DNA from: an uncultured Clostridia bacterium
Lineage (GTDB): Bacteria; Bacillota; Clostridia; TANB77; CAG-508
Reading direction: 5' to 3'
Assembly (NCBI GenBank): GCA_963557965.1
Contig: CAUWEX010000004.1
Coordinates: 649 to 64,648 of the forward strand
DNA length: 64,000 bases
Shown here: piece by piece, positions 28,182-54,094 of the stretch
Layout: every line of letters starts with the position of its first letter
Numbering within the stretch: position 1 is the first letter of the stretch
Notes under the pieces: model-generated
The model's database searches: none
What the model was told of the DNA's origin: nothing
What the model saw: the letters and a program-made list of their open reading frames with translations, nothing else
Made by a program: the position numbers and the translations under genes

Positions 28182-28311
28182 CTATTTTGTACATGTAAAC
28201 TACAGAGTATAGTTGTTTGAAAAAACGTTGAGTGAAATCTCTGAAGTGCAGTAGAATAAATGATTTTAGCGGTTGGAGTTGTTGAGTGAACGTGTAATAT
28301 TATTTAATTTT

Positions 28312-29526
28312 TTATAATTCTTTTTCACTTTCTGCTAATTGTTTTGGCTGATTTAAAGCTAAATTTTCTCTTAAATAATATTGATTTACTTTATCAATTT
28401 CATTTTCCTTAAATTTATCAAAAACAGAAGTATATGTATTTAAAGTAATACTAATATCTTTATGCCCCATAAGTCTTTGAACTACAACGGGAGCCATACC
28501 GCTTTCAATACATCTTGTTCCGAAAGTATGTCTTAAACTATGAGTAGAAATATCAGTAATATTAAACTCTTTTTTCAATATTCTTTTTAGCTCATTATTA
28601 ACATTAGAACGTCTAACATATTTACAATTTAGAGGCTTAAATAACAACTTTTCATCATTGTTTATTTGGGTATTGGCAATTTGCATTTGCTCAACAATAT
28701 ATGGGTATAAAAAATCAGGAATAGGCAATATTCTTTTTCCAGCATATGTTTTAGTTTTATTACCCATTATAACATTTCCGATTTCATCGATTGATAAAGT
28801 TCTATGAACATTGATCTTTTTATGTTGCAAATCAATATCATGAGTAGATAGGGCAAGAGCTTCACCGACACGCAACCCCATATACATTTGAATTAAAAAT
28901 ACATTTCTGTATTTATATTTATCTACAGGCTTATTAATTAACCAATGTGTGAAGTTTTGTTGTTCTTCTACTGTGAGTGCTCGAACAATTTTATCTTCCT
29001 TACTACTTTGAGGTCTAATAACATTAAGCATAGGATTTCTCATTATATAACCTTTATCCATTGCTATTTTAAAAGCTTGGTTTAATTGTTGATAAGCTTT
29101 TTTTATCATAGAATTACTTAGGTTATCTTTTAGAGAAGTTAGGTATGCTTGTAATTCTTCTGAAGTGATATCAGATATATTTTTATTACCAAAAGATGTT
29201 TTTTCTAAATTTTGAATTGTAATAAGAACCCTACCGTATTGAGAAGCAGATATTTGATTAGTATCTCTTTTTAAGTTTAAATTTTGTTTAAGAAGTTCAC
29301 ACATAGGTATTCCATGGTGTTCGATATATAATGCGTTTCCTTTTTGATACATAATTGTACTTAAATATTTTTTTGCTTCTTCCTCTGTTTTAAAACTTTT
29401 GGTTCGTCTTACGGTTTTTCCTTTGTTTACATCATATTCATAAAATTGTGCTAACCAATTTTTTCTTTGCTTATTAAAATATATAGAACCTTCACTACTT
29501 CCTTTAATAGGCATATTATACACCAC
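28312..29526 (-). CDS. int: Tyrosine-type site-specific recombinase/integrase
   Basis: C-terminal catalytic region LRVGEALAL, HSLRHTFGTRCIESG and LMGHKDISITLNTYTS (R..HxxR..Y). Confidence 0.92.
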   Translation of the reverse strand: MVYNMPIKGSSEGSIYFNKQRKNWLAQFYEYDVNKGKTVRRTKSFKTEEEAKKYLSTIMYQKGNALYIEHHGIPMCELLKQNLNLKRDTNQISASQYGRVLITIQNLEKTSFGNKNISDITSEELQAYLTSLKDNLSNSMIKKAYQQLNQAFKIAMDKGYIMRNPMLNVIRPQSSKEDKIVRALTVEEQQNFTHWLINKPVDKYKYRNVFLIQMYMGLRVGEALALSTHDIDLQHKKINVHRTLSIDEIGNVIMGNKTKTYAGKRILPIPDFLYPYIVEQMQIANTQINNDEKLLFKPLNCKYVRRSNVNNELKRILKKEFNITDISTHSLRHTFGTRCIESGMAPVVVQRLMGHKDISITLNTYTSVFDKFKENEIDKVNQYYLRENLALNQPKQLAESEKEL

Positions 29527-29785
29527 CTTTTCTATTCATTTTCCAAAGTAGATATGCTGCTAAAGTTATAGTTTTTCTTTTGCCAATATTAATACTTGGA
29601 AAATCTTGTTGTTTAAATAAGTCGTATGCCTGGTTTATTCCAATATGTAAATCTTTTGAAACATCTTGAACAGATAACATAGCAAAAGGGTTAGTTACTT
29701 TACTTAAATAATTTATAATAATTTGCTTACTTAAATTTGTATTATCTTGTGTATCAATTATATTTAAATTGTGTGTATTATTCAT
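29516..29785 (-). CDS. xis: Excisionase-type HTH DNA-binding protein (Xis-like)
   Basis: MLSVQDVSKDLHIGINQAYDLFKQQDFPSINIGKRKTITLAAYLLW fits the excisionase/HTH_17 pattern. The gene overlaps the int start. Confidence 0.7.
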   Translation of the reverse strand: MNNTHNLNIIDTQDNTNLSKQIIINYLSKVTNPFAMLSVQDVSKDLHIGINQAYDLFKQQDFPSINIGKRKTITLAAYLLWKMNRKGGV

Positions 29786-30359
29786 TTCTATTATCTCCGT
29801 TTCTATTAGATTTTAATAAATTAGCTAATATTAGTTCCAAATTAGAAAGAACATTAATTAGGCTTATTTCAAAATTATGATTATTAATATTTTTAAAATA
29901 ATTTTCTCTACTTCGACTTTCTTCAAAATCTCTTTCATATACTGATGAGACTTTTTGATTATTAGCTTGAGAAATATACAAAGTAGCTGAAGGGGGAAGA
30001 GGACTTTTATTTATTAAGTCTTTAGTAAACCATATAATATCTTCTTGTGATAACGAATTAAATTCACGTTCTTGAGGGTCAATATTTACGAGTATGAGAT
30101 CTCCTCTAATACTTCTAAAAGGCAGCACAATATTAGCTTTTCTATATTTCATTAATTTACTGTTATTACAAATTATATAAGAACCTTCATAAGGGATAAT
30201 ATCAAGATTTCTTTTTACAATTGCTTTTTTTAGAGTAGATATATTTTTTATAATTTTTACATGTGGAGTTTGACCAACTTTTTTATATATAACTCTAACA
30301 GGAAAGCTATTACGCGATTTATTAAGAAGTCGTGTAGATATTTCTTTTTTATTCATCAC
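29778..30359 (-). CDS. Hypothetical protein, DUF3846-like N-terminal domain
   Basis: VRVIYKKVGQTPHVKII...IICNNSKLMKYRKANIVLP...IRGDLILVNID...SLSQEDI resembles the DUF3846 pattern seen on conjugative/mobilizable elements. This is recalled from memory, not searched. Confidence 0.4.
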   Translation of the reverse strand: MMNKKEISTRLLNKSRNSFPVRVIYKKVGQTPHVKIIKNISTLKKAIVKRNLDIIPYEGSYIICNNSKLMKYRKANIVLPFRSIRGDLILVNIDPQEREFNSLSQEDIIWFTKDLINKSPLPPSATLYISQANNQKVSSVYERDFEESRSRENYFKNINNHNFEISLINVLSNLELILANLLKSNRNGDNRNE

Positions 30360-30763
30360 ATTTTACCACCTTGTTGTATTTTATTAGCTTTATATAAAAG
30401 TTCTAAGTTATGTTTAAAATGAGCTATACCTTTTGAACGTAATTTGATAACTTGGTTTTTAGATAATTGTAAGTTTTTACATATATCATTTAGCCTAAGA
30501 TTTTCTATATAAGAGAGATATAGTACTTTTCTTTCGATAAGTGGAACGATTTTCATTGCTAAATAATAAGTTTCATTTGTAAAGATATTTTCTAAATGAT
30601 TGATATTAACATCTGCATTATTTACTTTTTCCATTGAATTTTTATAATAGTTATTTTCTATCATCTGTACAATTGCTTCTGTTTCGAGAACTGTTTCAAC
30701 AATTGAATTAAATTCTTTTCTATCTTTTGTTGGTTGTACGTTTTTACTTTTTTGATTTTTCAT
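30356..30763 (-). CDS. Sigma-70 region-4-like small regulator (Tn916 Orf7-like)
   Basis: LSYIENLRLNDICKNLQLSKNQVIKLRSKGIAHFK is a region-4 HTH. The position upstream of xis-int matches Tn916-family regulatory modules. Confidence 0.6.
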   Translation of the reverse strand: MKNQKSKNVQPTKDRKEFNSIVETVLETEAIVQMIENNYYKNSMEKVNNADVNINHLENIFTNETYYLAMKIVPLIERKVLYLSYIENLRLNDICKNLQLSKNQVIKLRSKGIAHFKHNLELLYKANKIQQGGKM

Positions 30764-31102
30764 TTTCTAAAACCTCTTTTCTAAAATTTAGATTTCTAGA
30801 AATCTTTTTGTTGTTCGAACTGGCTATATAATAAACTAAATAACTGCTAAAATGTATTTTTGTAAGGTTTTTCACTAAAATGTATGAATTTGTAAGGAGA
30901 AGTAAGAGTTTGTAAGAACATGTAAGAAAACAAAGAAAATGTAAAGACTGGAAAGGTGCTAAAACAAGCATGGTGCAGCGATTTTTTTTAATGTTTTACG
31001 ACAAAAAATAAAAAATGCCTAAAACCTAGTCTATAACTAAGTTCTAAGCATTTTGGCTGTTAATGATATTATATAAATATTTGAAAGTATTATTGATATA
31101 TT

Positions 31103-31822
31103 TTATATATTTTCAAAATCATATGTATCTGTAATATCAAGATACAATATATTAGTTTTATTTAAGGTTTCTTTTTCTACATCAGTAATTTTTAGTTTTT
31201 CTAATAATTCGTCTGTAAATGCTATATCATCTTTTGATAGAATACATTTTCTAATACTAGGCACATATTCGCCATTGGTACAATGGAAAGTTCCTAACAT
31301 TAATTTATTAGTACCATCAACTATATTTACTATAAGATGTGAAAGTTCAAAACGTAAGTTGTTTTCTTTGTGATTTTCAAAAACAAATGTTGCTATGTGG
31401 TGGTCCGCTTGTAAGTATCCTGATAGATAAATGAAGTCTGTTTTATAGTCTAAAAAATCTACTTTGCACATATCAGGCTTTTGTGTGAGTTTTAATTTGA
31501 AGCGTGCTTTTGCATATTTCTTTGATTTTGGGTAATATGCGATATAGTATAAATAAAGCATATCAGTTTCAAATGGGTTTATACTAGTTTCACTATTATT
31601 AATTTTTCTTTGACTATTAAAAAGTTCATATTCATAAATTCCTAATGTATCACATATTAGAGAAATGTGTTCAGCATTTGGAATAATTTCGCCATTTTCA
31701 TATCTAGCAATTGTAGCTGTAGTTTTTCCAATAGCCATTGCTAGATTTTCTTGACTAAGCCCTTTGAGCTTTCGATACTTTTTAATATTTTGACCAAAAT
31801 CTTTACTATTAAAACAAGACAT
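31103..31822 (-). CDS. XRE-family HTH transcriptional regulator with C-terminal uncharacterised domain
   Basis: N-terminal IKKYRKLKGLSQENLAMAIGKTTATIARYENGEIIP is a Cro/C1-type HTH. Confidence 0.85.
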   Translation of the reverse strand: MSCFNSKDFGQNIKKYRKLKGLSQENLAMAIGKTTATIARYENGEIIPNAEHISLICDTLGIYEYELFNSQRKINNSETSINPFETDMLYLYYIAYYPKSKKYAKARFKLKLTQKPDMCKVDFLDYKTDFIYLSGYLQADHHIATFVFENHKENNLRFELSHLIVNIVDGTNKLMLGTFHCTNGEYVPSIRKCILSKDDIAFTDELLEKLKITDVEKETLNKTNILYLDITDTYDFENI

Positions 31823-31888
31823 AAGATCACCTCATAAATAAGTTATAATAATATTATAACACAGGTAGACATAACATTACAATAAAAA

Positions 31889-31917
31889 TTGAAATATTTA
31901 CCATAATATGGTATAAT
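31889..31917 (+). promoter_or_regulatory. Near-consensus sigma-A promoter with extended -10 (TTGAAA-17-TGgTATAAT), divergent from the XRE regulator
   Basis: TTGAAA 31889-31894, 17-nt spacer ending in TGG, TATAAT 31912-31917. A hairpin terminator GGGAGAAA/TTTCTCCC at 32167-32186 lies ~255 nt downstream. Confidence 0.6.
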
Positions 31918-32323
31918 TAAATTACTATATAGTAAAAGGAATGGCAAAAGCTGTTTTACAAGTTGCAATACTTGTGTTCAATAATGATTTGAAGTTCAAG
32001 AATTGCAACTGCTCGTACACCTCGAGATATGCTAAACTTTGTTATCTTCTCTTAATCATAATTGGATTTTTGCTTATAGAATATAAGAGAGAGGAGAGTA
32101 ACAGATGGAACATGAATTTTGTATTGGTGGACGGAAGCCCAGGAGCTTAAGCCGTTCGACAGTAAAGGGAGAAATAATTTTCTCCCAATATTTTTGTGAT
32201 AAGTAATTAGATAAAATTTAATCAATTACTTGTTTTTTAGTAGGATATATAGTATAGTAGAATTTATAGGAAATGAGAATAAGCAGATGTGGTTTGCCTC
32301 CTACATAAGAGGAGGTGAGGCGT

Positions 32324-32446
32324 ATGGTAGAAGTACAAGTATTATTATTAATAATTAAATTACTTTTTGCTGGTCTAGTATCAGTAACTATCATTGCGTT
32401 TGCCTTGATTATAGCAATAGTTGTAATTATTAGCAAACAAAAATAA
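32324..32446 (+). CDS. Type I toxin-like hydrophobic peptide (40 aa), not in the ORF track
   Basis: MVEVQVLLLIIKLLFAGLVSVTIIAFALIIAIVVIISKQK. Strong SD AGGAGG (32310-32315) is paired with upstream CCTCCT (32297-32302) in a 6-bp hairpin. Promoter TTGTTT-17-TATAGT at 32230-32258. Confidence 0.5.
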   Translation: MVEVQVLLLIIKLLFAGLVSVTIIAFALIIAIVVIISKQK

Positions 32447-32524
32447 CCAATAAAAAAACACATCTGTAACTTGTGAAGTGCACCCAAAAAATTAGACAAA
32501 AAATCTAATTTTGGAGGTGCATTT

Positions 32525-33052
32525 TTGATGTCAAAAAAAATATATACAACAGACATTAAATTACAAGTAGTAAAATATGTCGTTGATGAGAAACATTCAA
32601 TAGGTGAAGCAGTTGAACATTTTAAAATTCCTTATCAATCAATGAGAATGTGGATAAAACACTACGAGCATATTGGTATAACGGGATTATCCATAAAAAA
32701 TGAAAAATATACTGGTGCTTTTAAGGTTTCTGTAGTAAAATATATGTATGAAAATAAATTATCTTTAGTTGCAACAGCAGTACATTTTTCAATACCAGAC
32801 CATACTATTGTAAGAGCTTGGAAAAAAATATATGATAATAAGGGACCTATGTATCTACTGCAAGAGCAACGAGGAAGGTCTAAAAAAAGTAAAATGAAAT
32901 CAAAAAAAGTGAAGAAGATTAAAGAGGAAAATAACTTAACAGAAAAAGAATTATTGAAAAGAATACAATATTTAGAAACGGAGAATGCTTACTTAAAAAA
33001 ATTGAATGCCTTAATTCAAGAGAAGGAAAAATCAAAGAAAGAGATAAAGTAA
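32525..33052 (+). CDS. IS3-family transposase OrfA (HTH plus leucine zipper)
   Basis: HTH N-terminus and a C-terminal heptad region LLKRIQYLETENAYLKKLNALIQEKE. Slippery heptamer A AAA AAA at 32995-33001. Confidence 0.9.
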   Translation: MMSKKIYTTDIKLQVVKYVVDEKHSIGEAVEHFKIPYQSMRMWIKHYEHIGITGLSIKNEKYTGAFKVSVVKYMYENKLSLVATAVHFSIPDHTIVRAWKKIYDNKGPMYLLQEQRGRSKKSKMKSKKVKKIKEENNLTEKELLKRIQYLETENAYLKKLNALIQEKEKSKKEIK

Positions 33053-33084
33053 AGACCATCAATGAATTAAGGCAAAAATATAAT

Positions 33085-33906
33085 TTGATGGTATTATTAA
33101 AAATTGCTGGAGTAACTAGAAGTACATTCTATTATCATTTGAATCGAATGAAAGAACCGGATAAATATAAAGAAATTAAAGAAGAAATAAAAACAATATT
33201 TTTCGAGAATAAAGGAAGATATGGATATAGAAGAATATTATTAGAATTAAGAAATAGAGGATTTAATATAAATCATAAAACAGTATTAAGGTTGATGAAA
33301 GAATTAGGTTTAAAGAGTATTCAAAGACCTAAAAGGAGATATAATTCATATAAAGGAACCATAGGAAAAATAGCTGACAATATTCTAAATAGGAATTTTA
33401 ATGCAGAAAAGCCTAATGAAAAATGGGTTACTGATGTAACAGAGTTTAAGATAAATAATGAAAAACTTTATTTATCACCTATTATTGATTTATTTAATGG
33501 AGAGGTAATAAGTTATAATCTTTCACGACATCCTGTATTTCAACAAGTAGTTGATATGATAGAAAAGGCATTTAAAAAAATACCTGACAATACAAACCTA
33601 ATCCTACATTCAGACCAAGGTTGGCAATATCAAATGAAACAATATCAGAATATGCTTCAAGAAAAAGGTGTTAGACAAAGTATGTCAAGAAAAGGAACTT
33701 GTTTAGATAATAGCTTAGCAGAGAATTTTTTTGGAATATTAAAATCAGAATTGTACTATGTTAAAGAAAAAGAGTACAATAGTGTAGAAGAATTAGAAAA
33801 AGATATAATAGAATATATAGAGTATTATAATAATAGGAGAATAAAGAGTAAACTAAAAGGAATGACTCCTGTTCAATACAGAATTCATTCCCAAAATGTT
33901 GCTTAA
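33085..33906 (+). CDS. IS3-family transposase OrfB (DDE/rve catalytic domain), expressed as an OrfAB -1 frameshift fusion
   Basis: WVTDVTEF...HSDQGWQY...DNSLAENFFGILKSE is the DDE(K) pattern. The -1 frame is open from the slippery site (KKIECLNSREGKIKERDKVKTINELRQKYNL) into this ORF. Confidence 0.9.
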   Translation: MMVLLKIAGVTRSTFYYHLNRMKEPDKYKEIKEEIKTIFFENKGRYGYRRILLELRNRGFNINHKTVLRLMKELGLKSIQRPKRRYNSYKGTIGKIADNILNRNFNAEKPNEKWVTDVTEFKINNEKLYLSPIIDLFNGEVISYNLSRHPVFQQVVDMIEKAFKKIPDNTNLILHSDQGWQYQMKQYQNMLQEKGVRQSMSRKGTCLDNSLAENFFGILKSELYYVKEKEYNSVEELEKDIIEYIEYYNNRRIKSKLKGMTPVQYRIHSQNVA

Positions 33907-33947
33907 TACTAAATCAAAAAAATGTCCAATTTTTTGGGTTCAGTACA

Positions 33948-34012
33948 CTTGGCGGTTCAATGTGTTTTTTTAACATATAACTGGCAAACCACTTTGTGGT
34001 TTCTCCATTTCC
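33948..34012 (-). ncRNA. Candidate antitoxin sRNA, convergent to the type I toxin, driven by a perfect consensus promoter
   Basis: Minus-strand TTGACA (34043-34048), 17-nt spacer, TATAAT (34020-34025). The predicted RNA ggaaauggagAAACCACaaaGUGGUUUgcc... runs toward the split terminator. GGAG-AAACCAC is complementary to GUGGUUUgcCUCC in the toxin 5' UTR (32288-32300). Confidence 0.35.
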
Positions 34013-34281
34013 TATCTTTATTATATACAACTTTTTTATTATTGTCAAATAATATTCAAATTATATTTTTGTGTTACGTAAAACGTAATATTTTGTAATT
34101 TTAATATATTGTTATGGTATTTTAACTAAATTATAAAAAATAATATAAAAATGAACCTAAAAATTTGCACAAGAGGCAAAAACTATTGCATCTTATGCAA
34201 ATTTATTAATTTTGAAAAATATATGTAAACCTGTTATATTCATAATACTAAAATATAGGTAAATTGAATATACTATAGGGG

Positions 34282-34638
34282 ATGTTAAAATTGGAAACAA
34301 CAATAGTAATTTATAATATAATAAGAAAACTAGGAATAATACCTACACTAAAGGGGAGTAAGTTATTAGTAAAAGCAATTGAAATTCTAATAGCTAATGA
34401 AAATGAATTTATTGTTTTTGAGGATTTATATAAAATAATAGCCATGCATTATAGCCACTCTAATAGTGTACAAATTAGAAATGCAATTAAATATGCAATA
34501 GATAATAGAGATGAAAACAAAGCGATTACAAATTTTGAAAAGATTTTTGGTTATGAATATAGCCCATATTATTTTACTAATAAAACTATAATAGAAGAAA
34601 TTGCAAGAATAATAAGAATAGGGGATATTCTTACTTAG
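34282..34638 (+). CDS. Stand-alone Spo0A C-terminal (DNA-binding effector) domain protein, no receiver domain
   Basis: IIRKLGIIPTLKGSKLLVKAIEILI...LYKIIAMHY...VQIRNAIKYAI...FEKIFGY...TNKTIIEEIARII follows the Spo0A_C pattern (GVP.HlKGy.YL..AI, LY..IA, RAIRHAI, LFGY, TNSEFIA). Confidence 0.7.
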   Translation: MLKLETTIVIYNIIRKLGIIPTLKGSKLLVKAIEILIANENEFIVFEDLYKIIAMHYSHSNSVQIRNAIKYAIDNRDENKAITNFEKIFGYEYSPYYFTNKTIIEEIARIIRIGDILT

Positions 34639-34751
34639 AATTTTTTATATAATGTACTAAAAAAGAAATAATCGAAAAATGTTGACAAATTTGAAAGGCT
34701 TGTATAAAATAAATATGTAAAAAAAAAGAAACAAAAGAGGATGAATAAAAA

Positions 34752-34880
34752 ATGAAAGAAACAACTGATGCAAGCCTTGTGGCTGTAAGAGAGAGAGAGA
34801 GAGAGAGCTATACTTTACTAAATCAAAGAATAGCTTTAAAAATAGATGTTTTAAAAAGGATAGCAATAGAACCTGAATAA
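34752..34880 (+). CDS. Hypothetical 42-aa ORF containing an (AG)10 microsatellite, with its own promoter and terminator
   Basis: Promoter TTGACA 34682-34687, 17-nt spacer, TAAAAT 34705-34710. RBS AGAGGA. MKETTDASLVAVRERERESYTLLNQRIALKIDVLKRIAIEPE. Terminator aacctgaataaatcaggttttt. Coding status is uncertain. Confidence 0.3.
   Translation: MKETTDASLVAVRERERESYTLLNQRIALKIDVLKRIAIEPE
34788..34807 (+). repeat. (AG)10 dinucleotide microsatellite
   Basis: agagagagagagagagagag read directly. It is the only long dinucleotide tract I noticed in the window. Confidence 0.95.
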
Positions 34881-35035
34881 ATCAGGTTTTTGTTGCTGTC
34901 TTTTTTCGTGAGAAAAAACAAGTTAGTGAGTAGCAATGCTAAAAAGTAGAGTTCAAGCTAAAACTTATTTTCTCATATAAAATAGTTATTAAATTTTTAA
35001 ATTTTAAAATATAAAAAAATAAAGGAGGAAAAAAC

Positions 35036-36265
35036 ATGAAAGAAAAATTAAAAGGAAGGAAAGGTATTACACTAATTGCGTTAGTAATAACACTAATCGT
35101 GTTATTAATTTTAGCGGGTGTATCTATAGCAATGCTAACAGGAGAAAATGGAATATTAACACAAGCAACAAGTGCAAAAGAAAAAACAGAAAAGGCGGGA
35201 ATAATAGAAAGGGCACAAACAGACTTATTAGGACAACAAGTAAAAACAACAGATGGACAAGTAACTAAACCAATGTTAAAGGCAGTACTGGATACATATT
35301 TTAGTGATGTACCTGAAGCAGATGCAATAGAGTTAAGTACAGAACTAACATCTAAAGAAGGAAATTATAAAATACAAGTATCAGAAATTTATAATGGAAC
35401 ATTTGGAACAGGGGAAAAGCCAACAGGAGGAATATCAAGTTCAGAAATAGCAAATGCAGCAGATAAAAGCGAATATTATGGAGCGATAGTAAATGGGTAT
35501 GAACTACCAAGTGGAACAAATACAGATGTAAAATGGAAAATATTTTACGCAGATGAAAGTAATATTTATTTAATAGCAGATAATTATGTAGAAAAAGTAA
35601 ATTTACCAAATAGTACAACAGAAGCAGGGGTAACGATAGAGGGAGCAAACCACAAGCCAAATGATGGAAATAGCAGTTATCCGAGAGCAGCATATTTTAG
35701 TAATATACTAGGAGATTATGCCGGTTCAGCAAGGATAACAGACAGAAAATTAAAAGCATTAAATAATAGCTATTTTAATGAAAATAATTTTACAAGTACA
35801 AATAATAATATGAAATCAGTAGCATATATGATGGATACAAACGCTTGGAACAGTAAATTTAAAGATGTAAATAATAAGGCAGAATATGTAATTGGTGGAC
35901 CAACAGTAGAAATGTTAATGAAATCATATAGTCAAAAACATGGAGTAGATTATCAAGCAAGGGCAGAAAATGCTACAGGATATAAAATAAGTAACGATGG
36001 AGGAACAAGCTGGGAATATTATTATTCAGGAATGTTAGATACAAGTGATAGCTTATATGTAATAAGCTCACAGAGCGATGCTTATGGAATGTGGGTGGCT
36101 AGTCCCTCTGCCGATGGCGCTGCCTATGTAATGAGTGTGCGCTGCAGCGGCGGTGTGATCTATAGCAGCTATATCAATGACTACTATGGGTTCCGTCCGC
36201 TAGTTTCTCTAAAATCTGATGTCCAACTTCAAAAAAATGAAGACGGAACATATACAATACTATAA
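35036..36265 (+). CDS. DGR target protein: pilin-like N-terminus plus C-terminal C-type-lectin-fold (DUF1566/FGE-like) variable domain
   Basis: MKEKLKGRKG-ITLIALVITLIVLLILAGVSIAML N-terminus. C-terminus WVASPSADGAAYVMSVRCSGGVIYSSYINDYYGFRPLVSL is encoded by the VR, which matches the TR. Confidence 0.9.
   Translation: MKEKLKGRKGITLIALVITLIVLLILAGVSIAMLTGENGILTQATSAKEKTEKAGIIERAQTDLLGQQVKTTDGQVTKPMLKAVLDTYFSDVPEADAIELSTELTSKEGNYKIQVSEIYNGTFGTGEKPTGGISSSEIANAADKSEYYGAIVNGYELPSGTNTDVKWKIFYADESNIYLIADNYVEKVNLPNSTTEAGVTIEGANHKPNDGNSSYPRAAYFSNILGDYAGSARITDRKLKALNNSYFNENNFTSTNNNMKSVAYMMDTNAWNSKFKDVNNKAEYVIGGPTVEMLMKSYSQKHGVDYQARAENATGYKISNDGGTSWEYYYSGMLDTSDSLYVISSQSDAYGMWVASPSADGAAYVMSVRCSGGVIYSSYINDYYGFRPLVSLKSDVQLQKNEDGTYTIL
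36092..36208 (+). other. DGR variable region (VR)
   Basis: 117 nt colinear with TR 37167-37283. There are 22 differences, every one at a TR adenine, plus one C/T difference near the 3' edge after the GC-rich gggttccgtccgctag block. Confidence 0.93.
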
Positions 36266-36338
36266 GATGGGCGAAAAAATAAAAAATAAAGAATAGTGGG
36301 AACAGGCCTAGTGTCTGTTGCCACTAAAGGGGTTATAA

Positions 36339-36788
36339 ATGAGTGTTATAAGTATGGCAAGAGATATAAAAAAGGTTCATCCAAATGATACTGTAATGTA
36401 TAAGGTGGGAAACTTTGTACAAGCATTTGGAAAGGATGCATATGTATTATCTTATATATTCGACTATAAATTGAGAAATACCAAAGATAATATCCAAACA
36501 TGCGGATTTCCTAAAAATGCTATACCAAAAGTTATGAGCAAATTAGAACAAAAGAAGGTTAATTATATCATTATAGATACAAGGAATAATTATGAAGTTG
36601 ATGAAACTTTTGACAATAAAAATTTAAATAGTTATGAAGAAACAAGTAAAAAAGCTCAAAAGTATATAAAAATAAAGAAAAGAATTCAAAAAATAGAAGA
36701 AGAGCTGGTTGCTAATATGGATAGTATAAAAATAATGGATAAGATAAGAAAGATAGAAGAAATCGTATATGAAAACAGAAAAGTTTAA
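36339..36788 (+). CDS. DGR accessory protein with MutS domain-I-like (mismatch-binding-like) fold, MSL type
   Basis: YKVGNFVQAFGKDAYVLSYIFDYKL...TCGFPKNAIPKVMSKLEQKKVNYIIID parallels MutS domain I (GDFYELFxxDA...GVP...Y...L...GxKVAIcEQ). The Phe-x-Glu motif reads F-V-Q. Coiled-coil tail. Confidence 0.6.
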   Translation: MSVISMARDIKKVHPNDTVMYKVGNFVQAFGKDAYVLSYIFDYKLRNTKDNIQTCGFPKNAIPKVMSKLEQKKVNYIIIDTRNNYEVDETFDNKNLNSYEETSKKAQKYIKIKKRIQKIEEELVANMDSIKIMDKIRKIEEIVYENRKV

Positions 36789-37116
36789 AGTAATCCAATT
36801 TATTAGGGAATTATTAATTATTATAGATAAAAACATGGATAATTTTCCTAAAAAAGATATCGAATTAAAAAATCGAATAAGAAGTAACACATATGACCTA
36901 TTAGAGATTGCATATGAAGCTAATAGCATAGAAGATGTTAATATAAAAAATCAGCTATTAAATAAAATGATAGCAAAAATAAAAGTAATAGATTTCTTAC
37001 TAAATTTAACATATGACAAACAAATTATAACGGAAAAGAAATATTATAAACTTGGAAACAAACTTGATGATATAATAAAATATATCACTGGCTGGAAAAA
37101 TGCACTTAAAAAATAG
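36769..37116 (+). CDS. avd: DGR accessory variability determinant (Avd; four-helix bundle, 23S rRNA IVS protein family)
   Basis: 115 aa; NMDNFPKKDIELKNRIRSNTYDLLEIAYEAN...KYYKLGNKLDDIIKYITGWKNAL fits the Avd pattern. Lies immediately upstream of the TR. Confidence 0.8.
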   Translation: MKTEKFKVIQFIRELLIIIDKNMDNFPKKDIELKNRIRSNTYDLLEIAYEANSIEDVNIKNQLLNKMIAKIKVIDFLLNLTYDKQIITEKKYYKLGNKLDDIIKYITGWKNALKK

Positions 37117-37166
37117 GGTATGGTTGAATGCGTGAAAGCTCATTGCGTTTGAGGTTCGTTTTTGTT

Positions 37167-37283
37167 TGGGTGGCTAGTCCCTCTGCCAATAACACTAACA
37201 ATGTAATGAATGTGAACTACAACGGCAATGTGAACAATAACAACTATAACAATAACAACAATGGGTTCCGTCCGCTAGCTTCT
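37167..37283 (+). other. DGR template region (TR), AAY-codon rich
   Basis: tgggtggctagtccctctgcc aat aac act aac aat gta atg aat gtg aac tac aac ggc aat gtg aac aat aac aac tat aac aat aac aac aat gggttccgtccgctagcttct. Same strand as the VR. Confidence 0.93.
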
Positions 37284-37446
37284 AAAAAACTGTGGTTATA
37301 TCTACTATGGTAGAATAAGAGAAGGTTTAGATAGAAACAAACCATGTCCATTAGTTAAGACATTAACTATAAAATATAAAATAGATAATTAAATTTGTTA
37401 GTAGGTATTATTATATTCGAAAGGGAACTTAATTTAGAACTGTTTT

Positions 37447-37476
37447 AAGTAGTACATTTGATTGTACTACTTTTTT
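37447..37476. terminator. Bidirectional hairpin terminator shared by the TR transcript (+) and the RT gene (-)
   Basis: aagtagtaca tttgat tgtactactt is a perfect 10-bp stem followed by a T run. The RT stop codon (37467-37469) lies inside the stem. Confidence 0.75.
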
Positions 37477-38432
37477 AACGTAAATAAATTATTTCTATTG
37501 GATAAACTTTGATAACACCTTAAGCTAGAAATAAAACTTCCAAGAGGAATTTTATTACTTTTATATAATTTATATCTACTCTTTAATTTTCGTTTGACAT
37601 TTCTATATCTAGCATATTGAAAATTAGAATTTCGACCTAAAAATAAAAAATTATTAGTATTTTTATATATCCTGGTTTTTATATTTAATTCTAGTTTTTC
37701 TTTTTCTAAAAAATTTGTGATTTCAGATAAGCAATATTTCAAATAGTCTTTTGAAGGATGAAACAACAAAAAATCGTCTTGGTAACGCACATAATATTTA
37801 ATCTTTAGAGTTTCTTTTATAAAATGGTCTAAATCGTTCAAATAAAATATAGCTAAAATTTGACTAGTCATAGAACCAATAAATAGACCTTCAGTATTGC
37901 TATCAATAATATCAAATACAATTTTGATTGCATCTTTATCTTTTATTCTTCTTAATAGTTTTTTCTTTAAAATATCATGATTAATATTAGAAAAAAATTT
38001 ACTAATATCACATTTTAGAATATAGTATGAACCATATTTAATTTTACATTTTTTATGAAAAGAAGCTGCTAATTCTAGGCCCTTACTAGTTCCCATATCT
38101 TTTCTACTAGCTACATTAACGTCAAGTAAACAAGGTAAAATTGCAGGATATAAAATGTATCTTGCTACTAAGTGATTAACAATTTTATCTTGTACATTTT
38201 GACTTACAATTAATCTTTTTTTGGGTTCGTAAATAATGAATTTATTATATGGTCCTATTTTATATTGTTTGTTTTTTAATATTTCATGAATTCGTGAGAT
38301 ATAAATTGATTTATATTCTTTTAAATTTTCTACTCTTCTTTCATTGCGTGTATTTTTGCAAACTTCATTATAAGCAGAAATAATATTATTAAAATTATAG
38401 ATATTAGAATATAAATTTCCTTTTCTTTTCAT
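37467..38432 (-). CDS. DGR reverse transcriptase
   Basis: RT motifs including LFIGSMTSQILAIFYLN (DGR-type [I/L]GxxxSQ) and YVRYQDDFLLF (YxDD). 321 aa. Adjacent to the TR but on the opposite strand. Confidence 0.9.
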   Translation of the reverse strand: MKRKGNLYSNIYNFNNIISAYNEVCKNTRNERRVENLKEYKSIYISRIHEILKNKQYKIGPYNKFIIYEPKKRLIVSQNVQDKIVNHLVARYILYPAILPCLLDVNVASRKDMGTSKGLELAASFHKKCKIKYGSYYILKCDISKFFSNINHDILKKKLLRRIKDKDAIKIVFDIIDSNTEGLFIGSMTSQILAIFYLNDLDHFIKETLKIKYYVRYQDDFLLFHPSKDYLKYCLSEITNFLEKEKLELNIKTRIYKNTNNFLFLGRNSNFQYARYRNVKRKLKSRYKLYKSNKIPLGSFISSLRCYQSLSNRNNLFTLKK

Positions 38433-38505
38433 ATGTAACTCCTATAGAACTAATTTACAACTTTAAATATATAACATTATATGTAAGATATTAACAGCTA
38501 ATATC

Positions 38506-38534
38506 ATTATAAGATAGTTAGATATAATATGCAA
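38506..38534 (-). promoter_or_regulatory. Sigma-A promoter for the RT gene (TTGCAT-17-TATAAT on the minus strand)
   Basis: Reverse complement reads cTTGCATattatatctaactatctTATAATg. AGGAG RBS precedes the RT ATG. Confidence 0.6.
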
Positions 38535-38641
38535 GACAAATGGCAAAAATTGTTAAACAATAAATTTACGATAATTAAAGAATGTTAAATAATTAATAAA
38601 ATTATAGTAATTTAACGTAAAAATGTGTTATAATAGTAGAA

Positions 38642-38734
38642 CCACATCCAATAACAAAAGCAGATTATGAGAATAATTCGAACCCTTTTGTACAAGAAGT
38701 AATGAATACGGGAATTGAACTAAAAGTAGCATGA
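38642..38734 (+). pseudogene. 3'-terminal remnant (31 codons) of a second MNT-type nucleotidyltransferase gene
   Basis: PHPITKADYENNSNPFVQEVMNTGIELKVA* parallels the C-terminus of the MNT at 41190-41516 (LPFSIEEYNEPKGIMEEILNTGIELKVA*). It is preceded directly by a copy of the promoter repeat (aaaatgtgttataat). Confidence 0.7.
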
Positions 38735-38775
38735 GAAACAAAAAAGACGACTAGCAATGCTAGCCATCTTTTTTG

Positions 38776-39705
38776 TTATCTATCGAAAGTTTTTATAAAA
38801 TTATCAACTAAAGATTTAAAAGTATGTATAGGAAAATTAAATAGGTGTTTTATAACTTCGAAAGTTTTATCAATATAATTCTTTAGGTTATGATTTTCCT
38901 GTTTTAAAGTAATATTTTCTTTTTGTAGATTTTCTACTTTATTTATAGCAAAATAGGCTTTGCTTAGTTGTAATTTTAATTTATTATTATTTTCAATTAA
39001 AGTTTGATTTTGCTTAAGTAATAAATGTGTATCTTGTGTAGGAATACATTGTTCTTGTTTATTTTGTAGTTCATATTTTATATTATCATAATTAGTAACT
39101 TGTTTTAATGTTTTTATTGGGATATGGACATTATCTTTAGTATTGCCGCGTTCTAAATCAAAACCATGTTCAATCATATAAGTATAAAAACTGTCTTGTA
39201 ATTTCCTATAACTGTCTTTGCCTTTCCAATATTGACTACAAGCAATTTTTTTAATAGGATTACCATTTTTATCTTTTGTATGAACAACTGGAACAAAAAC
39301 CAAGTGTAAATGTGGAGTGGTTTCATCCATGTGAACTTTGCTAGATAAAATATATTTTTCACCTAAATTTTTATAATTTGCAACAAAGTTATGAGCAGTT
39401 TGAAAATATCTTTTTGTTTCTTCTTCTCCAATACTTTTGAAAAAGTCGTTATCAGAAGTAATTATAAATTCACATACTACGTTTGTTGTTTTTATTATTC
39501 TTCCTTGTAAGTTATTTTCCTGTATTAATTTTTTTAGTGCATTTGAATATGTAGTGTTACACTGTTTAATTGAATAATTTTTTATTAAATTATTTTTACT
39601 AATATCTTTGTTTGAGTAATTAGTATTTTTTCTTTCGTTATGTTTATATAATCCTGCTAAATTATCTTTCTTATAATTAGCATTTCTAATAATAGCATAA
39701 CTCAT
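38776..39705 (-). CDS. mob: MobV-family (Pre/Mob) relaxase
   Basis: N-terminal MSYAIIRNANYKKDNLAGLYKHNERK and the HxDE...PHxH motif (VHMDETTPHLHLVFVPV). C-terminal coiled coil. Confidence 0.88.
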   Translation of the reverse strand: MSYAIIRNANYKKDNLAGLYKHNERKNTNYSNKDISKNNLIKNYSIKQCNTTYSNALKKLIQENNLQGRIIKTTNVVCEFIITSDNDFFKSIGEEETKRYFQTAHNFVANYKNLGEKYILSSKVHMDETTPHLHLVFVPVVHTKDKNGNPIKKIACSQYWKGKDSYRKLQDSFYTYMIEHGFDLERGNTKDNVHIPIKTLKQVTNYDNIKYELQNKQEQCIPTQDTHLLLKQNQTLIENNNKLKLQLSKAYFAINKVENLQKENITLKQENHNLKNYIDKTFEVIKHLFNFPIHTFKSLVDNFIKTFDR

Positions 39706-39808
39706 TTTTTTATTTTTCCTTTTCTATAGATTGCCTTCGAAGGCTTACTTAAATTAAAATACCCCATTTGATTTTCTTGAATAAACTTTTTTTAGTTTCT
39801 AACATACT

Positions 39809-39853
39809 AGAACGTCGCGGACGTTCTGTATGGTCAGGGAAAATACTTTTCCC
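39809..39853. promoter_or_regulatory. Candidate oriT: two adjacent GC-containing hairpins upstream of the relaxase gene
   Basis: AGAACGTC gcg GACGTTCT (39809-39827) and AGGGAAAA tac TTTTCCCT (39835-39853), in otherwise AT-rich DNA ~100 bp upstream of mob. Confidence 0.45.
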
Positions 39854-40007
39854 TAACAACCCTTTTTAGAAAGATAAATAATAAAATTCTTACGAAGTTT
39901 ATCAATTATCTTTCTTTGCACGATTAATATTTAATTTATTTCGCTTACGCTACATAAATAAAATATTTTAATCGTGTTATAAAAATATTCGCTTTTAAGC
40001 TCATATT

Positions 40008-40114
40008 TTTATAATTGATTTTGCAAGCTAAAGCTAGCAAAATTTGATAAGCATTTTCTTTGTGGTACGTAATTATTAATAATTTTTAGTAATTTATTTT
40101 AATTTTTTATAATT
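40008..40114 (+). repeat. Cassette-flanking repeat, copy R1 (longest), upstream of the ParE module
   Basis: tttataattgattttgcaagc...tttctttgtgg...attaataatttttagtaatttattttaattttttataatt. Shared with 40828-40903, partly with 41521-41565 and degenerately with 38586-38636. Confidence 0.8.
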
Positions 40115-40201
40115 ATTATTAATTTTTCAATAATAATAAAAAAATATGGCAATTTAAAATAAAAATGTGATATAATATATAACATAGGAGATGATGTTAT
40201 T

Positions 40202-40453
40202 ATGACAATGAAACAACAAGAATTGTATGATGTTATTGAAAGTTTACCAGAAGAACTTTCAATAAAAGCAATTGATTATATAGAATACCTAAAATTTACT
40301 TATTCATTTATTAAAGCTCCAAGCGACCTAATTGTAAAAGATGAAAAAGACTTATTAGTAAAACTACAAAAAGGTATAAAAGATACTGAAGAAGGGAAAG
40401 TATGTTCTGTTGAAGAAGCTTTTGCAGAAGTTAATGAAATCTTATTAGGTTAA
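40202..40453 (+). CDS. Type II antitoxin partner of ParE (family not assigned)
   Basis: 83-aa acidic protein immediately upstream of, and translationally adjacent to, the ParE-like toxin. Confidence 0.6.
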   Translation: MTMKQQELYDVIESLPEELSIKAIDYIEYLKFTYSFIKAPSDLIVKDEKDLLVKLQKGIKDTEEGKVCSVEEAFAEVNEILLG

Positions 40454-40470
40454 GATAGGAGGTTTTTATA

Positions 40471-40785
40471 TTGGACAAGTATAAAGTAGAATTATCAATA
40501 CAAGCAAAAAATGATTATAAAAGTATTATTCATTATATAAAGTATGAATTATTAGAACCTACTATTGCAGAAAAATATGCTAATCTAATAAGAAATGAGC
40601 TTACTTCTTTAGAATATCAACCTAGTAAATTTTCTATTATTGACCATAATGAGATTAAAAAATATCAGTTTAGAAAATTAGTTATGAAAAATTATATTGC
40701 GTTTTATCGTATTAATGATAAAGATAAGATAGTGAATGTTGAGAGAATTTTATATAATGCTAGTAATTGGATGGATAAATTATAA
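40471..40785 (+). CDS. parE: Type II toxin, ParE/RelE superfamily
   Basis: 104 aa; YKVELSIQAKNDYKSIIHYI...FRKLVMKNYIAFYRINDKDKIVNVERILYNASNW fits the ParE pattern. TTG start after AGGAGG. Confidence 0.75.
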   Translation: MDKYKVELSIQAKNDYKSIIHYIKYELLEPTIAEKYANLIRNELTSLEYQPSKFSIIDHNEIKKYQFRKLVMKNYIAFYRINDKDKIVNVERILYNASNWMDKL

Positions 40786-40827
40786 AAAATTTATGTTAAT
40801 TTTATAAAACTAAACAGTTAATTTAGC

Positions 40828-40903
40828 TTTATAATTGATTTTGCAAGCAATTTCTTTGTAGTTATTAATAATTTTTAGCAATTTATTTTAATTTTTTATA
40901 ATT
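40828..40903 (+). repeat. Cassette-flanking repeat, copy R2, abutting the truncated HEPN ORF
   Basis: tttataattgattttgcaagcaatttctttgtagttattaataatttttagcaatttattttaattttttataatt. It lacks the internal hairpin segment of R1. Confidence 0.8.
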
Positions 40904-40917
40904 TTTATCAATTTTTT

Positions 40918-41214
40918 ATGTGCCAACAAGCTATAGAAAAGTTAAGCAAAGGTATATACGTATATACTTTCGATAAAGAAGCACCATTTACTCATAATAT
41001 TAACGTTATTTTAAAAGATATCGATAAAGTTATAAATTCGATTGAGTATAAAAAATTTGAATCTTTATTTGCAACTTTAACATCATTTTATATAATAGGT
41101 AGATATGATGTATATAAACAAAAAATTTCAAAAGATTTAGATAATAAATCTAGCAAAGAATTATTAAATAAATCAAAGGAGGCGTTTGTATGGTTAAAGT
41201 CCCTTCAAACATAA
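40918..41214 (+). pseudogene. HEPN-domain protein (toxin of a HEPN/MNT pair), apparently N-terminally truncated at repeat R2 and lacking an RBS
   Basis: Begins CQQAIEKLSKGIYVY...THNINVIL...IIGRYDVY, i.e. mid-way through the usual first HEPN helices. No SD precedes the ATG (atcaattttttATG). Overlaps the MNT start. Confidence 0.55.
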
Positions 41215-41516
41215 TTAAATTAATTGAAAAATTTATTAAATTACTAAAAGAAGAAAATATAGTGGTTGAAAAAGTAATTCTATTTGGTTCTTATGCTAAG
41301 GGAACATATAGAGCAGATAGTGATATTGACTTGGCAATTGTCTCTCCTAACTTTAAGGAAGAAGATTGTATTGAAAATATGACATTTCTATTATGTAAGG
41401 CTAACATACTAAAGGCAGATATTCAAACTTTGCCTTTTAGTATAGAAGAATACAACGAACCTAAAGGGATAATGGAAGAAATTTTGAATACTGGAATAGA
41501 ACTTAAAGTTGCATAA
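41190..41516 (+). CDS. MNT-type nucleotidyltransferase (antitoxin of the HEPN/MNT type VII module)
   Basis: VILFGSYAKGTYRADSDIDLAIV is the GSxxxGxxxxxSDxD Pol-beta NTase motif. Confidence 0.85.
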   Translation: MVKVPSNIIKLIEKFIKLLKEENIVVEKVILFGSYAKGTYRADSDIDLAIVSPNFKEEDCIENMTFLLCKANILKADIQTLPFSIEEYNEPKGIMEEILNTGIELKVA

Positions 41517-41520
41517 GGCA

Positions 41521-41565
41521 ATATTAATTAGTATTAATTTTTAGTAATTTATTTTAACTTTTTTC
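41521..41565 (+). repeat. Cassette-flanking repeat, partial copy R3
   Basis: atattaattagtattaatttttagtaatttattttaactttttt matches the core of R1/R2. Confidence 0.7.
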
Positions 41566-41624
41566 GACAAAACGCTTAACTTAACAAGAATAGCTGAAAG
41601 TGTTAGAATAGGCGATATAGTTCA

Positions 41625-41817
41625 TTCATCCGCACCATAAGAAAAATCGATGTAAATAGCTTGTATCTAAGGATACAGGCTATTTTAACGTTTGGTAACT
41701 AATAAATTTATTATATAATTTAAAATATTTATTTTTCACTAGAGCCACAAAGGGTTTCACGATTTTTAATTTTTATTAATTTTTTGTAGTAAAAACTGTT
41801 CACTCAACAAAAATTGA
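41625..41817 (+). repeat. attR-side direct repeat (copy of the tRNA-Leu 3' end plus downstream 180 bp)
   Basis: Matches 27989-28181. Differences include a compensatory pair in the hairpin (aGtagc..gctaCt vs aAtagc..gctaTt). Confidence 0.9.
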
Positions 41818-44122: not shown

Positions 44123-45064
44123 ATGATAAAAAGAGAAAAAATATATAATTTATATTGGTATTTTGCAGCAGAAAGACAAAACATTTTTTATAAAAAGCTA
44201 AATGGTGAAGAAGCTCCTTGGACAAAAGATTTAATATTGCAAGAATACAAATTTTGTAATAGCTACAGAGCTAGTGATAGAGTATCACAATACTTAATAA
44301 AAAACGTAATATATAATGGTAAAAAATATAGCAATCAAGATATGATTTTTAGAATTATATTATTTAAACTTTTTAACAAAGAACGTACATGGGAAATATT
44401 ATGTAACAAACTAGGAGACATCGTATTAGAAAACTTTGGCTTTAATGAATATTGTAAAATTTTAGAAGAAGCGAAAGAAAAAGGAGAAAAAATATATACA
44501 GATGCATATATGTCATGTGCCAATAAAGCCTATGGTTATGATAAAAAACACGAAAATCATATAGCTTTAATAGAGCAAATGTTCATAAAGGATAAAATGC
44601 AAAATAAAATATTAAATGCTAAAAACATGGAAGAAGCGTTTAACATAATAAAACAATACCCATTAATAGGAGATTTTATGGCATATCAACTAATAACAGA
44701 TATAAATTATAGTGAAGCAACAAACTTTAGTGAAAGAGAATTTACTGTAGCAGGACCAGGTTCTGAAAGAGGAATAAAAAAATGTTTTATCGACAGAGAG
44801 GGCATGACAAAAGAAGATATAATAAAATGGATGTGTAATCATCAAGAAGAAGAATTTGAAAGACTCGGAATTCAATTTAAAAGATTAGGAGAACGACCAC
44901 TACAATATATAGATTGTCAAAATCTATTTTGTGAATTAGATAAATATTGTAGACAAGCTGTACCAGAATTAAAAAGCAATAGGACAAAAATTAAAAAGAA
45001 ATATGTACCAAAAGCTGATAAGATAGAATATAAATATCCACCAAAATGGAACATAGAAATATAA
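44123..45064 (+). CDS. Conserved hypothetical protein; possibly aGPT-Pplase-like (DNA base hypermodification-associated) family
   Basis: The N-terminal pattern IYNLYWYFAAERQNIFYKKL...APWTKDLILQEYKFCNSYRASDRVSQYL resembles, from memory only, the alpha-glutamyl/putrescinyl thymine pyrophosphorylase family. Not verified. Confidence 0.3.
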   Translation: MIKREKIYNLYWYFAAERQNIFYKKLNGEEAPWTKDLILQEYKFCNSYRASDRVSQYLIKNVIYNGKKYSNQDMIFRIILFKLFNKERTWEILCNKLGDIVLENFGFNEYCKILEEAKEKGEKIYTDAYMSCANKAYGYDKKHENHIALIEQMFIKDKMQNKILNAKNMEEAFNIIKQYPLIGDFMAYQLITDINYSEATNFSEREFTVAGPGSERGIKKCFIDREGMTKEDIIKWMCNHQEEEFERLGIQFKRLGERPLQYIDCQNLFCELDKYCRQAVPELKSNRTKIKKKYVPKADKIEYKYPPKWNIEI

Positions 45065-50503: not shown

Positions 50504-50515
50504 AGGAGAAGAAAC

Positions 50516-51214: not shown

Positions 51215-51216
51215 AA

Positions 51217-52056: not shown

Positions 52057-52081
52057 CAAGTAAGGAGGGTGGACTAGAACC

Positions 52082-54061: not shown

Positions 54062-54094
54062 GTACTAAATATAAAAAGGAGGTGCTAATTAAAA

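Follow-up and report, generated by a model that had tools for sequence, protein, structure and literature searches.

We analyzed a 64-kb stretch of DNA (hereafter the window; contig CAUWEX010000004.1 of GenBank assembly GCA_963557965.1) from an uncultured Clostridia bacterium of the TANB77 lineage. Its central part carries the components of a diversity-generating retroelement (DGR), a type of element in which a variable repeat (VR) in a target gene is rewritten from a template repeat (TR) with the help of a reverse transcriptase (RT). DGRs are well known; they are frequent among gut microbes and abundant in gut Firmicutes. The cassette described here consists of a target gene with the VR at its 3' end, genes for a small MutS-like (MSL) protein and an Avd-like protein, an intergenic TR followed by a conserved structured RNA segment, and an RT gene on the opposite strand. 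From its sequence and that of its relatives, it is very likely a functional DGR of the MSL-plus-Avd type, residing on a small integrative mobilizable island of uncultured low-GC gut Clostridia.

The target gene (35036-36265, plus strand) encodes a protein of 409 residues, and the VR (36092-36208, plus strand) is in frame near its 3' end, corresponding to residues 353-391. The TR (37167-37283, plus strand) is intergenic and lies 184 nt from the RT stop codon. The two repeats form a gapless alignment of 117 nt (offset 1075), with substitutions between 36113 and 36185 and one further mismatch near the 3' edge. In total there are 23 mismatches, 22 of which fall on a TR adenine; given that 41 of the 117 TR bases are adenines, a hypergeometric test puts the probability of 22 or more out of 23 at 1.3e-11. 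This recount agrees with the preliminary description of this DNA, which was made from the sequence alone and had reported 22 adenine-site differences plus a C/T difference at the edge. The codon pairs it quoted (aat aac act aac aat in the TR, gat ggc gct gcc tat in the VR) were also correct. Its statement that G, C and T of the TR are conserved holds for 75 of the 76 non-adenine positions, the single exception being C37279 in the TR against T36204 in the VR (gctagCttct vs gctagTttct), 4 bases ahead of the point where homology decays. A spread of mismatches over non-adenine TR positions had been set beforehand as the outcome that speaks against a DGR, and the tabulation shows an adenine-specific pattern instead. 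Over a slightly longer repeat of 123 nt, the substituted adenines read G in 14 cases, T in 7 and C in 3. An independent repeat search returned the VR/TR pair as the longest direct repeat of the region, and a second VR-like copy was not found on either strand of the window.

The TR has the codon composition that the preliminary description had pointed out: 17 AAY codons occur within the variable stretch of 25 codons, and a stop codon cannot be reached by any A-to-N change. The theoretical repertoire from these 25 variable residues is ~7.6e22 proteins. The VR terminates in a GC-rich block without A-to-N changes (36188-36208, plus strand; GGGTTCCGTCCGCTAGTTTCT) that resembles an initiation of mutagenic homing (IMH) sequence, and its TR counterpart, IMH*, is located at 37263-37283. 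Together they can be written as GGGTTCCGTCCGCTAG[T/C]TTCT, in which the difference between T36204 and C37279 is constant in all seven VR alleles discussed below. The GC-rich 3' end and the retained one-base difference agree with the IMH/IMH* boundary that had been expected here, and we treat the two blocks as candidate IMH and IMH* elements.

The RT gene (37467-38432, minus strand; 321 aa) converges on the TR from the opposite strand, an orientation that the preliminary description had left unstated while identifying the enzyme correctly. The [I/L]GxxxSQ and YxDD motifs it had named are present as IGSMTSQ (37860-37880) and YQDD (37773-37784), and the protein matches RVT_1 with an E-value of 6e-16. 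The best solved-structure match, PDB 8ub7_A, aligns with residues 2-318 of 321 (E 2.1e-27), and tblastn showed the aligned stretch of that structure to be 100% identical to brt of Bordetella phage BPP-1. The window RT matches group II intron and retron-type RTs at 7e-11 and worse, so that the grouping with group II intron, retron or Abi enzymes that had been set as evidence against a DGR is not what the searches returned. Among phages, the RTs closest to it belong to DGRs (nd12, 41.7% identity; Faecalibacterium phage FP_Brigit, 34%), and a close relative was not found among IMG/VR viral contigs. NCBIfam does not contain a DGR-RT model, and the below-cut-off matches of the RT to its group II, Drt and retron models are uninformative either way. 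By its motifs, structure-database match and phage relatives, rather than by a tree, the RT is assigned to the DGR clade.

Two small genes lie between the target gene and the TR. The first (36339-36788, plus strand) encodes the MSL protein, which is 149 aa long (144 aa when started at 36354, as gene callers do) and basic (isoelectric point, pI, 9.4). It matches Pfam MutS_I above the cut-off (E 4.8e-9). Because its PDB matches to MutS domain I reach only E ~0.2-0.7, the assignment is based on the Pfam profile. A GxF motif is conserved in the MSL alignment and, via the Pfam alignment, appears to be the counterpart of the mismatch-inserting Phe of MutS. Where MutS has its Glu, the MSL proteins vary, and the window protein has Gln. 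The second gene (36769-37116, plus strand) overlaps the 3' end of the first and encodes the Avd-like protein (115 aa, pI 9.5). This protein gives full-profile matches to Pfam bAvd (E 4e-9, 37.4 bits against a cut-off of 40) and to NCBIfam DivGenRetAVD (E 4e-10, below cut-off), whereas its sequence has no PDB match at E <= 1. The earlier label 'Avd-like' is appropriate, with scores below the curated cut-offs. The same description had called the element complete; its RT, Avd-like protein, target and TR/VR pair were all found again, but it had missed the MSL gene, and the conserved RNA 3' of the TR must also be added.

Among 372 DGRs surveyed by Wu et al. (2018, PMC5758913), MSL accessory genes were present in 16, always with avd and never with HRDC, an arrangement designated 'Architecture D'. 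HRDC has no match among the proteins of our cassette. The combination of MSL and Avd without HRDC matches Architecture D, and the cassette thus fits a known class, of which it is a member as judged by its gene content.

We identified 46 related RT loci in genomes of uncultured gut Clostridia from human, rabbit, chicken, mouse and goat samples. In 20 of these 46 loci, a TR/VR pair was found with at least 80% of mismatches at A and on the appropriate strand, and the MSL-Avd pair is kept beside the TR in ~30 related loci. The locus with the most similar RT (L001, 90%) has the RT surrounded by the same gene set as in the window. The closest relatives (RT identity ~68% and above) share the convergent layout, and the more distant loci (63-70%) have the co-directional order target-MSL-Avd-TR-RT, with RT-TR in one case. 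As a separate observation, a second family of small MutS-domain-I-like open reading frames (ORFs; MSKLY..., LFKxGIFF) occurs near the RT in L010, L011, L014, L018 and L034 (at ~5581, 425, 1868, 1344 and 569, respectively). These ORFs are additional to the Avd-adjacent MSL, and the window lacks an equivalent.

Directly 3' of the TR lies a conserved structured RNA segment of 163 nt (37284-37446, plus strand), which we defined from an alignment of 13 loci. Its consensus fold shows compensatory changes in 14 of 33 pairs. In the MAFFT alignment, 94.9% of cells are paired, compared with 45-55% when pairing partners are slid; the 14 pairs with double changes compare with 1-6 in the slid controls, and no shuffle matched the observed covariation. 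These values are to be read with the structure having been derived from the same sequences on which pairing was scored. The motif occurs once per locus, immediately 3' of the TR and on the TR strand, in convergent and co-directional layouts alike. This constant linkage to the TR, whatever the RT orientation, indicates that the RNA belongs to the TR transcript. A search of Rfam at permissive E-values over 34000-40000 returned only chance-level eukaryotic or viral families and left the post-TR RNA unmatched.

The structured segment is followed by a hairpin with a T-run (37447-37476; AAGTAGTACATTTGATTGTACTACTTTTTT), which overlaps the RT stop codon and is present in the minimum free energy fold. 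Equivalent hairpins of other sequence occur at the corresponding place in relatives, and from its position and sequence the hairpin probably serves as a terminator of the two converging transcripts. It was not listed by our pattern scanner because its stem has too few G-C pairs for the scanner rule; in general, the promoter and terminator pattern scan gave counts not above those in shuffled sequences and was uninformative.

Another element of interest is a GC-rich inverted repeat with a 5-nt loop (36295-36325, plus strand), located between the target and MSL genes, 87 nt past the VR end. In 10 of 11 loci (the window counted, with one outlier), such a repeat is found 87-97 nt from the IMH TAG. 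Its stem sequences vary around a conserved core, ACAGGCCTTGTGTCTGT, and are not followed by a T-tract. GC-rich hairpins or cruciforms downstream of the IMH are found in 34% of DGRs (PMC5758913), and the functional hairpin of the BPP-1 type is situated 4-34 bp from the VR, with a 7-10 bp stem and a GRNA tetraloop (PMC3240598). The repeat in our cassette may be used for target recognition or for transcript processing or attenuation. We also noted a perfect 8-nt inverted repeat, GTTCCGTC / GACGGAAC (36193-36200 / 36243-36250), between the IMH and the last target codons. It was set aside as a candidate DGR hairpin, having a 42-nt loop and clear conservation only in L003 and L004 (in an unsystematic look), and may reflect chance or mark an additional structured element of the target site.

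The target, from a family with more than 7360 members, consists of an N-terminal module (residues 1-128; 35036-35419, plus strand) and a C-terminal globular domain (residues 131-409; 35426-36262, plus strand) with the VR at its end. The protein does not reach the threshold of any Pfam or NCBIfam family. The C-terminal 279 residues were modeled with AlphaFold2 (AF2) from a 38-sequence alignment, with a predicted local distance difference test score (pLDDT) of 94.2 and a predicted template modeling score (pTM) of 0.92. Foldseek gave a single significant PDB match for this model, 9qa6 (E 9e-4), an IgA protease of Thomasclavelia ramosa whose N-terminal domain is annotated as DUF6273. The full-length target model likewise returned 9qa6 only; the domain had been modeled alone to exclude a domain-orientation artefact, and the outcome was unchanged. 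Mtd and TvpA were not among the PDB matches of the C-terminal model. The best matches among viral models (BFVD) are DUF6273 proteins of gut phages (best E 1e-5). TM-scores to DUF6273 structures and models are low (0.27-0.38), and the window target does not match PF19789 even at E 10; relatives at 48-55% identity match the last 50 positions of this family, at the VR. The models thus point to a DUF6273-like C-terminal domain. The C-type-lectin-like target proposed initially was not confirmed by the fold searches, which place the domain with DUF6273.

The N-terminal module has a hydrophobic helix after K-G (GITLIALVITLIVLLILAGVSIAML), with the N-terminus reading KG-ITLIALVITLIVLLILAGVSIAML, and resembles type IV pilins. 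Its five best PDB profile matches are all type IV pilins (8pfb_G PilE1 at E 0.0035, then geopilin, MshA and PilA), the pilin matches spanning E 0.0035-0.66, and GspG gives a weak match in 12 of 13 members. Pfam N_methyl matches at E 0.044, below its cut-off, and the Glu at position 5 of the pilin motif is replaced by an invariant Ala. Glu5 is likewise absent from minor pilins located at the tip, such as GspK. These properties suggest that the target is a surface-displayed, variable ligand-binding protein and possibly a modular pilin, with the chances of the pilin part roughly even. Since the N-terminal module resembles a type IV pilin, the target may be a diversified adhesin that is presented on, or anchored like, a pilus subunit.

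The helix could also be a plain membrane anchor or an uncleaved signal, making the target a membrane-tethered variable receptor or adhesin and not a subunit of a type IV filament; we would expect this explanation to prove right about half the time. It agrees with the sub-threshold N_methyl score and with Ala at position 5, where Glu is typical of assembling pilins. The pilins of a pilus cluster elsewhere in the window (49403-61293) have a different N-terminus (MENASKAL...), no prepilin peptidase was seen in the window, and AF2 confidence for residues 1-40 is low. On the other hand, a plain anchor leaves unexplained why the top five PDB profile matches are all type IV pilins, with one alignment running past the helix into the globular part, and why the sequence G-[IF]-T-L-I-x-L, followed by ~20 hydrophobic residues, has the pattern of a class III signal. 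A more far-reaching and rather doubtful proposal takes the target for a genuine modular type IV pilin, i.e., a tip-type minor pilin without Glu5 that carries a DGR-diversified DUF6273 binding module. In that case, the more than 7360 family members in gut Clostridia would reflect the diversification of type IV filament adhesins by DGRs in monoderm commensals, dispersed on small mobilizable islands. In the literature searched, we found no paper linking DGRs to type IV pilin targets.

Natural variation of the target provides the most direct view of the activity of the element. A cluster built at 90% identity contains 11 distinct target sequences of 409 aa, whose differences are confined to residues 360-384, with 1-359 and 385-409 shared by all. 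Within that segment, V365, V368, G372 and V374 are invariant among the 11 versions, and these are exactly the codons without a recodable adenine. An exact-sequence look-up of the window's own target protein returned no record. We compared the window with 13 contigs (L047-L059) that carry six target versions and come from at least four European Nucleotide Archive (ENA) assembly series, over positions 34900-38600 (3701 nt). In 12 of them, the only departures from the window across these 3701 nt are 20-23 substitutions, all within the VR and all at TR-adenine positions, with the exception of one synonymous G>T in L059. That G>T lies at the equivalent of TR position 37232. Outside the VR, these 12 contigs have 0-11 differences over the 5-8 kb fetched, mostly in a copy of IS3, compared with ~20 inside the 117-nt VR. 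The thirteenth, L052, has 4 differences in the other 3584 nt of the cassette and 38 over 5-8 kb. Seven distinct VR alleles are found on backgrounds with 0 differences in these 3584 nt (4 in L052), which indicates that the VR turns over far faster than ordinary divergence proceeds. At least one allele is changed at 37 of the 41 TR adenines, and the bases found at TR-adenine positions across alleles are A (131), G (64), T (38) and C (13).

The TR itself is unchanged in 12 of the 13 related contigs. In L052 it has three altered bases (AATGGG to ATCGGC; 37261, 37262 and 37265), and the L052 VR has these same three new bases, its other differences from its own TR being again at adenines. A TR change mirrored in the VR is the behavior expected when the VR is repeatedly overwritten from the TR. 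Sequence comparison thus identifies the TR as the invariant master copy and the VR as the recipient, and it indicates that this DGR is active in nature, with the VR rewritten repeatedly at TR-adenine positions while the flanking kilobases stay identical. The mutagenic retrohoming that the preliminary description had read from the mismatch pattern is supported by both the allele comparison and the joint TR/VR change in L052. An invariant VR, which had been set beforehand as contrary evidence, is not what the relatives have: they vary in the VR only, at TR-adenine positions.

It is conceivable that the cassette is a fossil, now inactive, whose alleles are old variants inherited by different strains. 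Each assembly yields one consensus VR, and individual alleles recur across samples (P0122 in 14 contigs, P0123 in 9) and can thus be stable for some time. We nevertheless regard a fossil as very improbable: every component is intact and the same in all contigs, the AAY design of the TR has been retained, and the seven alleles on otherwise unchanged backgrounds need fast VR turnover. That the VR and TR are an ordinary duplication, with variability produced by recombination, gene conversion or assembly artefacts, is scarcely credible even though metagenome assemblies can collapse or mix strains and the element is mobile and lies beside an IS3 copy, for ~130 substitutions across alleles are restricted to adenine sites of a sequence 1 kb away and the flanks are identical on both sides. 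In addition, dozens of related loci with the same A bias keep the repeat pair together with a DGR-clade RT, an Avd-like gene and a TR-linked RNA.

Several observations weigh against our interpretation of the cassette as a functional DGR diversifying a possibly pilin-like surface protein. IMH and IMH* are separated by just one base inside the repeat. The GC-rich inverted repeat, 87 nt away and with a 5-nt loop, falls outside the BPP-1-type pattern (4-34 bp, GRNA), and the Avd-like protein scores under both curated cut-offs, with no sequence-level match in PDB. With RT and TR on opposite strands, the RNA-protein complex must assemble in trans; DGRs with this arrangement do exist (PMC5758913). 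The pilin reading of the N-terminus has weak scores and lacks the canonical Glu5. Finally, the support for activity is comparative and derives from consensus metagenome assemblies of relatives, other than the window's own strain.

With regard to mechanism, what goes beyond rewriting of the VR from the TR at adenines is modeled on the Bordetella phage system. By this analogy, transcription of the plus strand would run through the TR and the 3' structured RNA as far as the hairpin (37447-37476). The RT, expressed from its own converging transcript, would bind the TR RNA together with the basic Avd-like protein and copy the TR into cDNA, misincorporating opposite adenines. The cDNA would then replace the VR, with the GC-rich IMH setting the 3' boundary, and the MSL protein probably acts at the heteroduplex or mismatch stage.

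Compared with the prototype BPP-1 DGR (mtd-avd-TR-brt), the window cassette has the VR in the same place at the target 3' end, the same A-specific TR-to-VR pattern and a GC-rich IMH boundary. Both carry a gene for a small basic Avd or Avd-like protein immediately before the TR and a structured RNA after it, which in BPP-1 RNA is the spacer, and the window RT aligns over its full length with Brt. In contrast to BPP-1, the carrier is an island with integrase and relaxase genes rather than a phage, a MutS-domain-I gene is added, and the RT is encoded on the other strand. Foldseek did not match the DUF6273-like target domain to Mtd, and the inverted repeat differs in distance and loop as noted above. 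With Architecture D DGRs, which include the Legionella DGR (PMC5758913), our cassette shares a small MutS-like protein occurring with avd (112-283 aa in that survey, 149 aa here). It differs from them in the pI of this protein (7.2 +/- 1.7 in Wu et al. vs 9.4) and in the orientation of the RT, which in the window and its closest relatives runs opposite to the other cassette genes, whereas more distant members of the RT group are co-directional.

The DGRs of Faecalibacterium prophages and of the 'tentaclin' phages nd4/nd12 (PMC11792537, PMC10743442) also have the variable region at the C-terminal end of a DUF6273-type domain, and the RT of nd12 is the nearest phage relative of ours. Their targets are phage tail or receptor-binding proteins, whereas the window target has a pilin-like N-terminus and resides on a non-phage island. 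A further parallel comes from the type V pilus-adhesin DGRs of Bacteroides (bioRxiv 10.1101/2024.11.15.621889), in which a cellular DGR of a gut commensal is reported to diversify a surface or pilus-associated ligand-binding protein and to spread horizontally between species. The Bacteroides elements differ in phylum, in having a type V pilus as opposed to a possible type IV-like module, and in target fold; for our target, the pilus association is itself tentative. Lastly, the modular pilins PilB and PilC of Streptococcus sanguinis (PMC8179133, PMC9934059) combine a pilin module with a grafted binding module, and PilE1 of the same pilus is the best PDB sequence match of our N-terminal module. 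Unlike our target, these pilins are not acted upon by a DGR, and the window protein, a putative pilin by sequence, has Ala in place of Glu5.

The element extends the MSL-plus-Avd class with a DUF6273-type target and leaves the current understanding of DGRs unchanged. Its value lies in providing a clean natural demonstration, in which a 13.6-kb island is near-identical across public metagenomes while 25 codons of one surface protein are repeatedly rewritten at template adenines. It is also a compact and well-delimited example of the poorly understood MSL class, with a convergent RT and a covarying RNA adjacent to the TR, and could guide reconstitution. Points of note are the clean evidence for activity, the TR-linked RNA, the MSL protein, the distal hairpin, and the possible diversification of a type IV pilin by a DGR. 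If the target is indeed a pilin, it would represent programmable adhesion in an uncultured gut lineage carrying a pilus cluster like that recently tied to immunotherapy response in TANB77. If the modular-pilin reading is correct, the system would parallel, on the Gram-positive side, the type V pilus DGRs of Bacteroides.

The island that carries the cassette spans ~13.6 kb (27989-41817) and is bounded by imperfect direct repeats of ~190 nt (27989-28181 / 41625-41817; exact blocks of 31, 29, 27 and 63 nt), which start in the 3' end of a tRNA-Leu(tag) gene (27918-28001). It encodes a tyrosine integrase (28312-29526, minus strand) and a Mob_Pre relaxase (38776-39705, minus strand), and the integrase, relaxase and tRNA-gene repeats identify it, by sequence, as a predicted integrative mobilizable element. 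Type IV secretion domains were not found in the larger ORFs scanned between the repeats, a scan that did not cover all small ORFs. A megablast search of the cassette against PLSDB plasmids and INPHARED phages gave no match. The island also encodes a helix-turn-helix (HTH) regulator. At its right end are two two-gene modules, one for an 83-aa protein and a ParE-family toxin (40202-40785, plus strand) and one for a HEPN protein whose gene overlaps that of a minimal nucleotidyltransferase (40918-41516, plus strand).

Inside the island, an IS3-family transposase pair (32525-33906, plus strand) consists of orfA (175 aa) and orfB (273 aa, with rve domains). This pair accounts for most of the few differences that related contigs show outside the VR, and in L052 its first ORF is called shorter, at 124 aa. 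Between this pair and the target gene are a 118-aa protein made up entirely of the C-terminal DNA-binding domain of Spo0A (Spo0A_C; 34282-34638, plus strand; E 3e-11) and a 42-aa ORF (34752-34880, plus strand) that gene callers report in every related contig. The Spo0A_C protein is a possible regulator of the cassette. Its gene adjoins the target in L001 too, and a hairpin with a T-run is present at ~34861-34890, just upstream of the target gene.

The window as a whole is chromosomal, with genes for enolase, PheRS, SRP54, LysRS, TsaD, RecG, Era, RecO and SpoIVB and a GC content of 28%. Outside the island it has a Tad-like pilus cluster (49403-61293, plus strand), which encodes a weakly SAF/CpaB-like protein of 366 aa, a 232-aa protein, a ParA/CpaE-like protein of 279 aa, a T2SSE ATPase of 659 aa and a polytopic protein of 696 aa, followed by six small pilin-like proteins (most of them MENASKAL...) and a 539-aa protein. 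In size and order the cluster agrees with the TANB77 pilus cluster listed in Table 1 of PMC11680825 (358, 231, 280, 640 and 693 aa), a paper that mentions neither retroelements nor variable regions. The agreement suggests that the host is a member of TANB77 or stands near this uncultured order. We considered a link between the DGR target and this cluster and found it unsupported, as the N-terminus of the cluster pilins differs from that of the target. Finally, a chromosomal protein of 313 aa (44123-45064, plus strand), encoded just upstream of era and recO, gives a full-length match to the Pfam family '5-hmdU DNA kinase, helical domain' (E 9e-109). This protein was unexpected, the family being named after a phage DNA-hypermodification enzyme.

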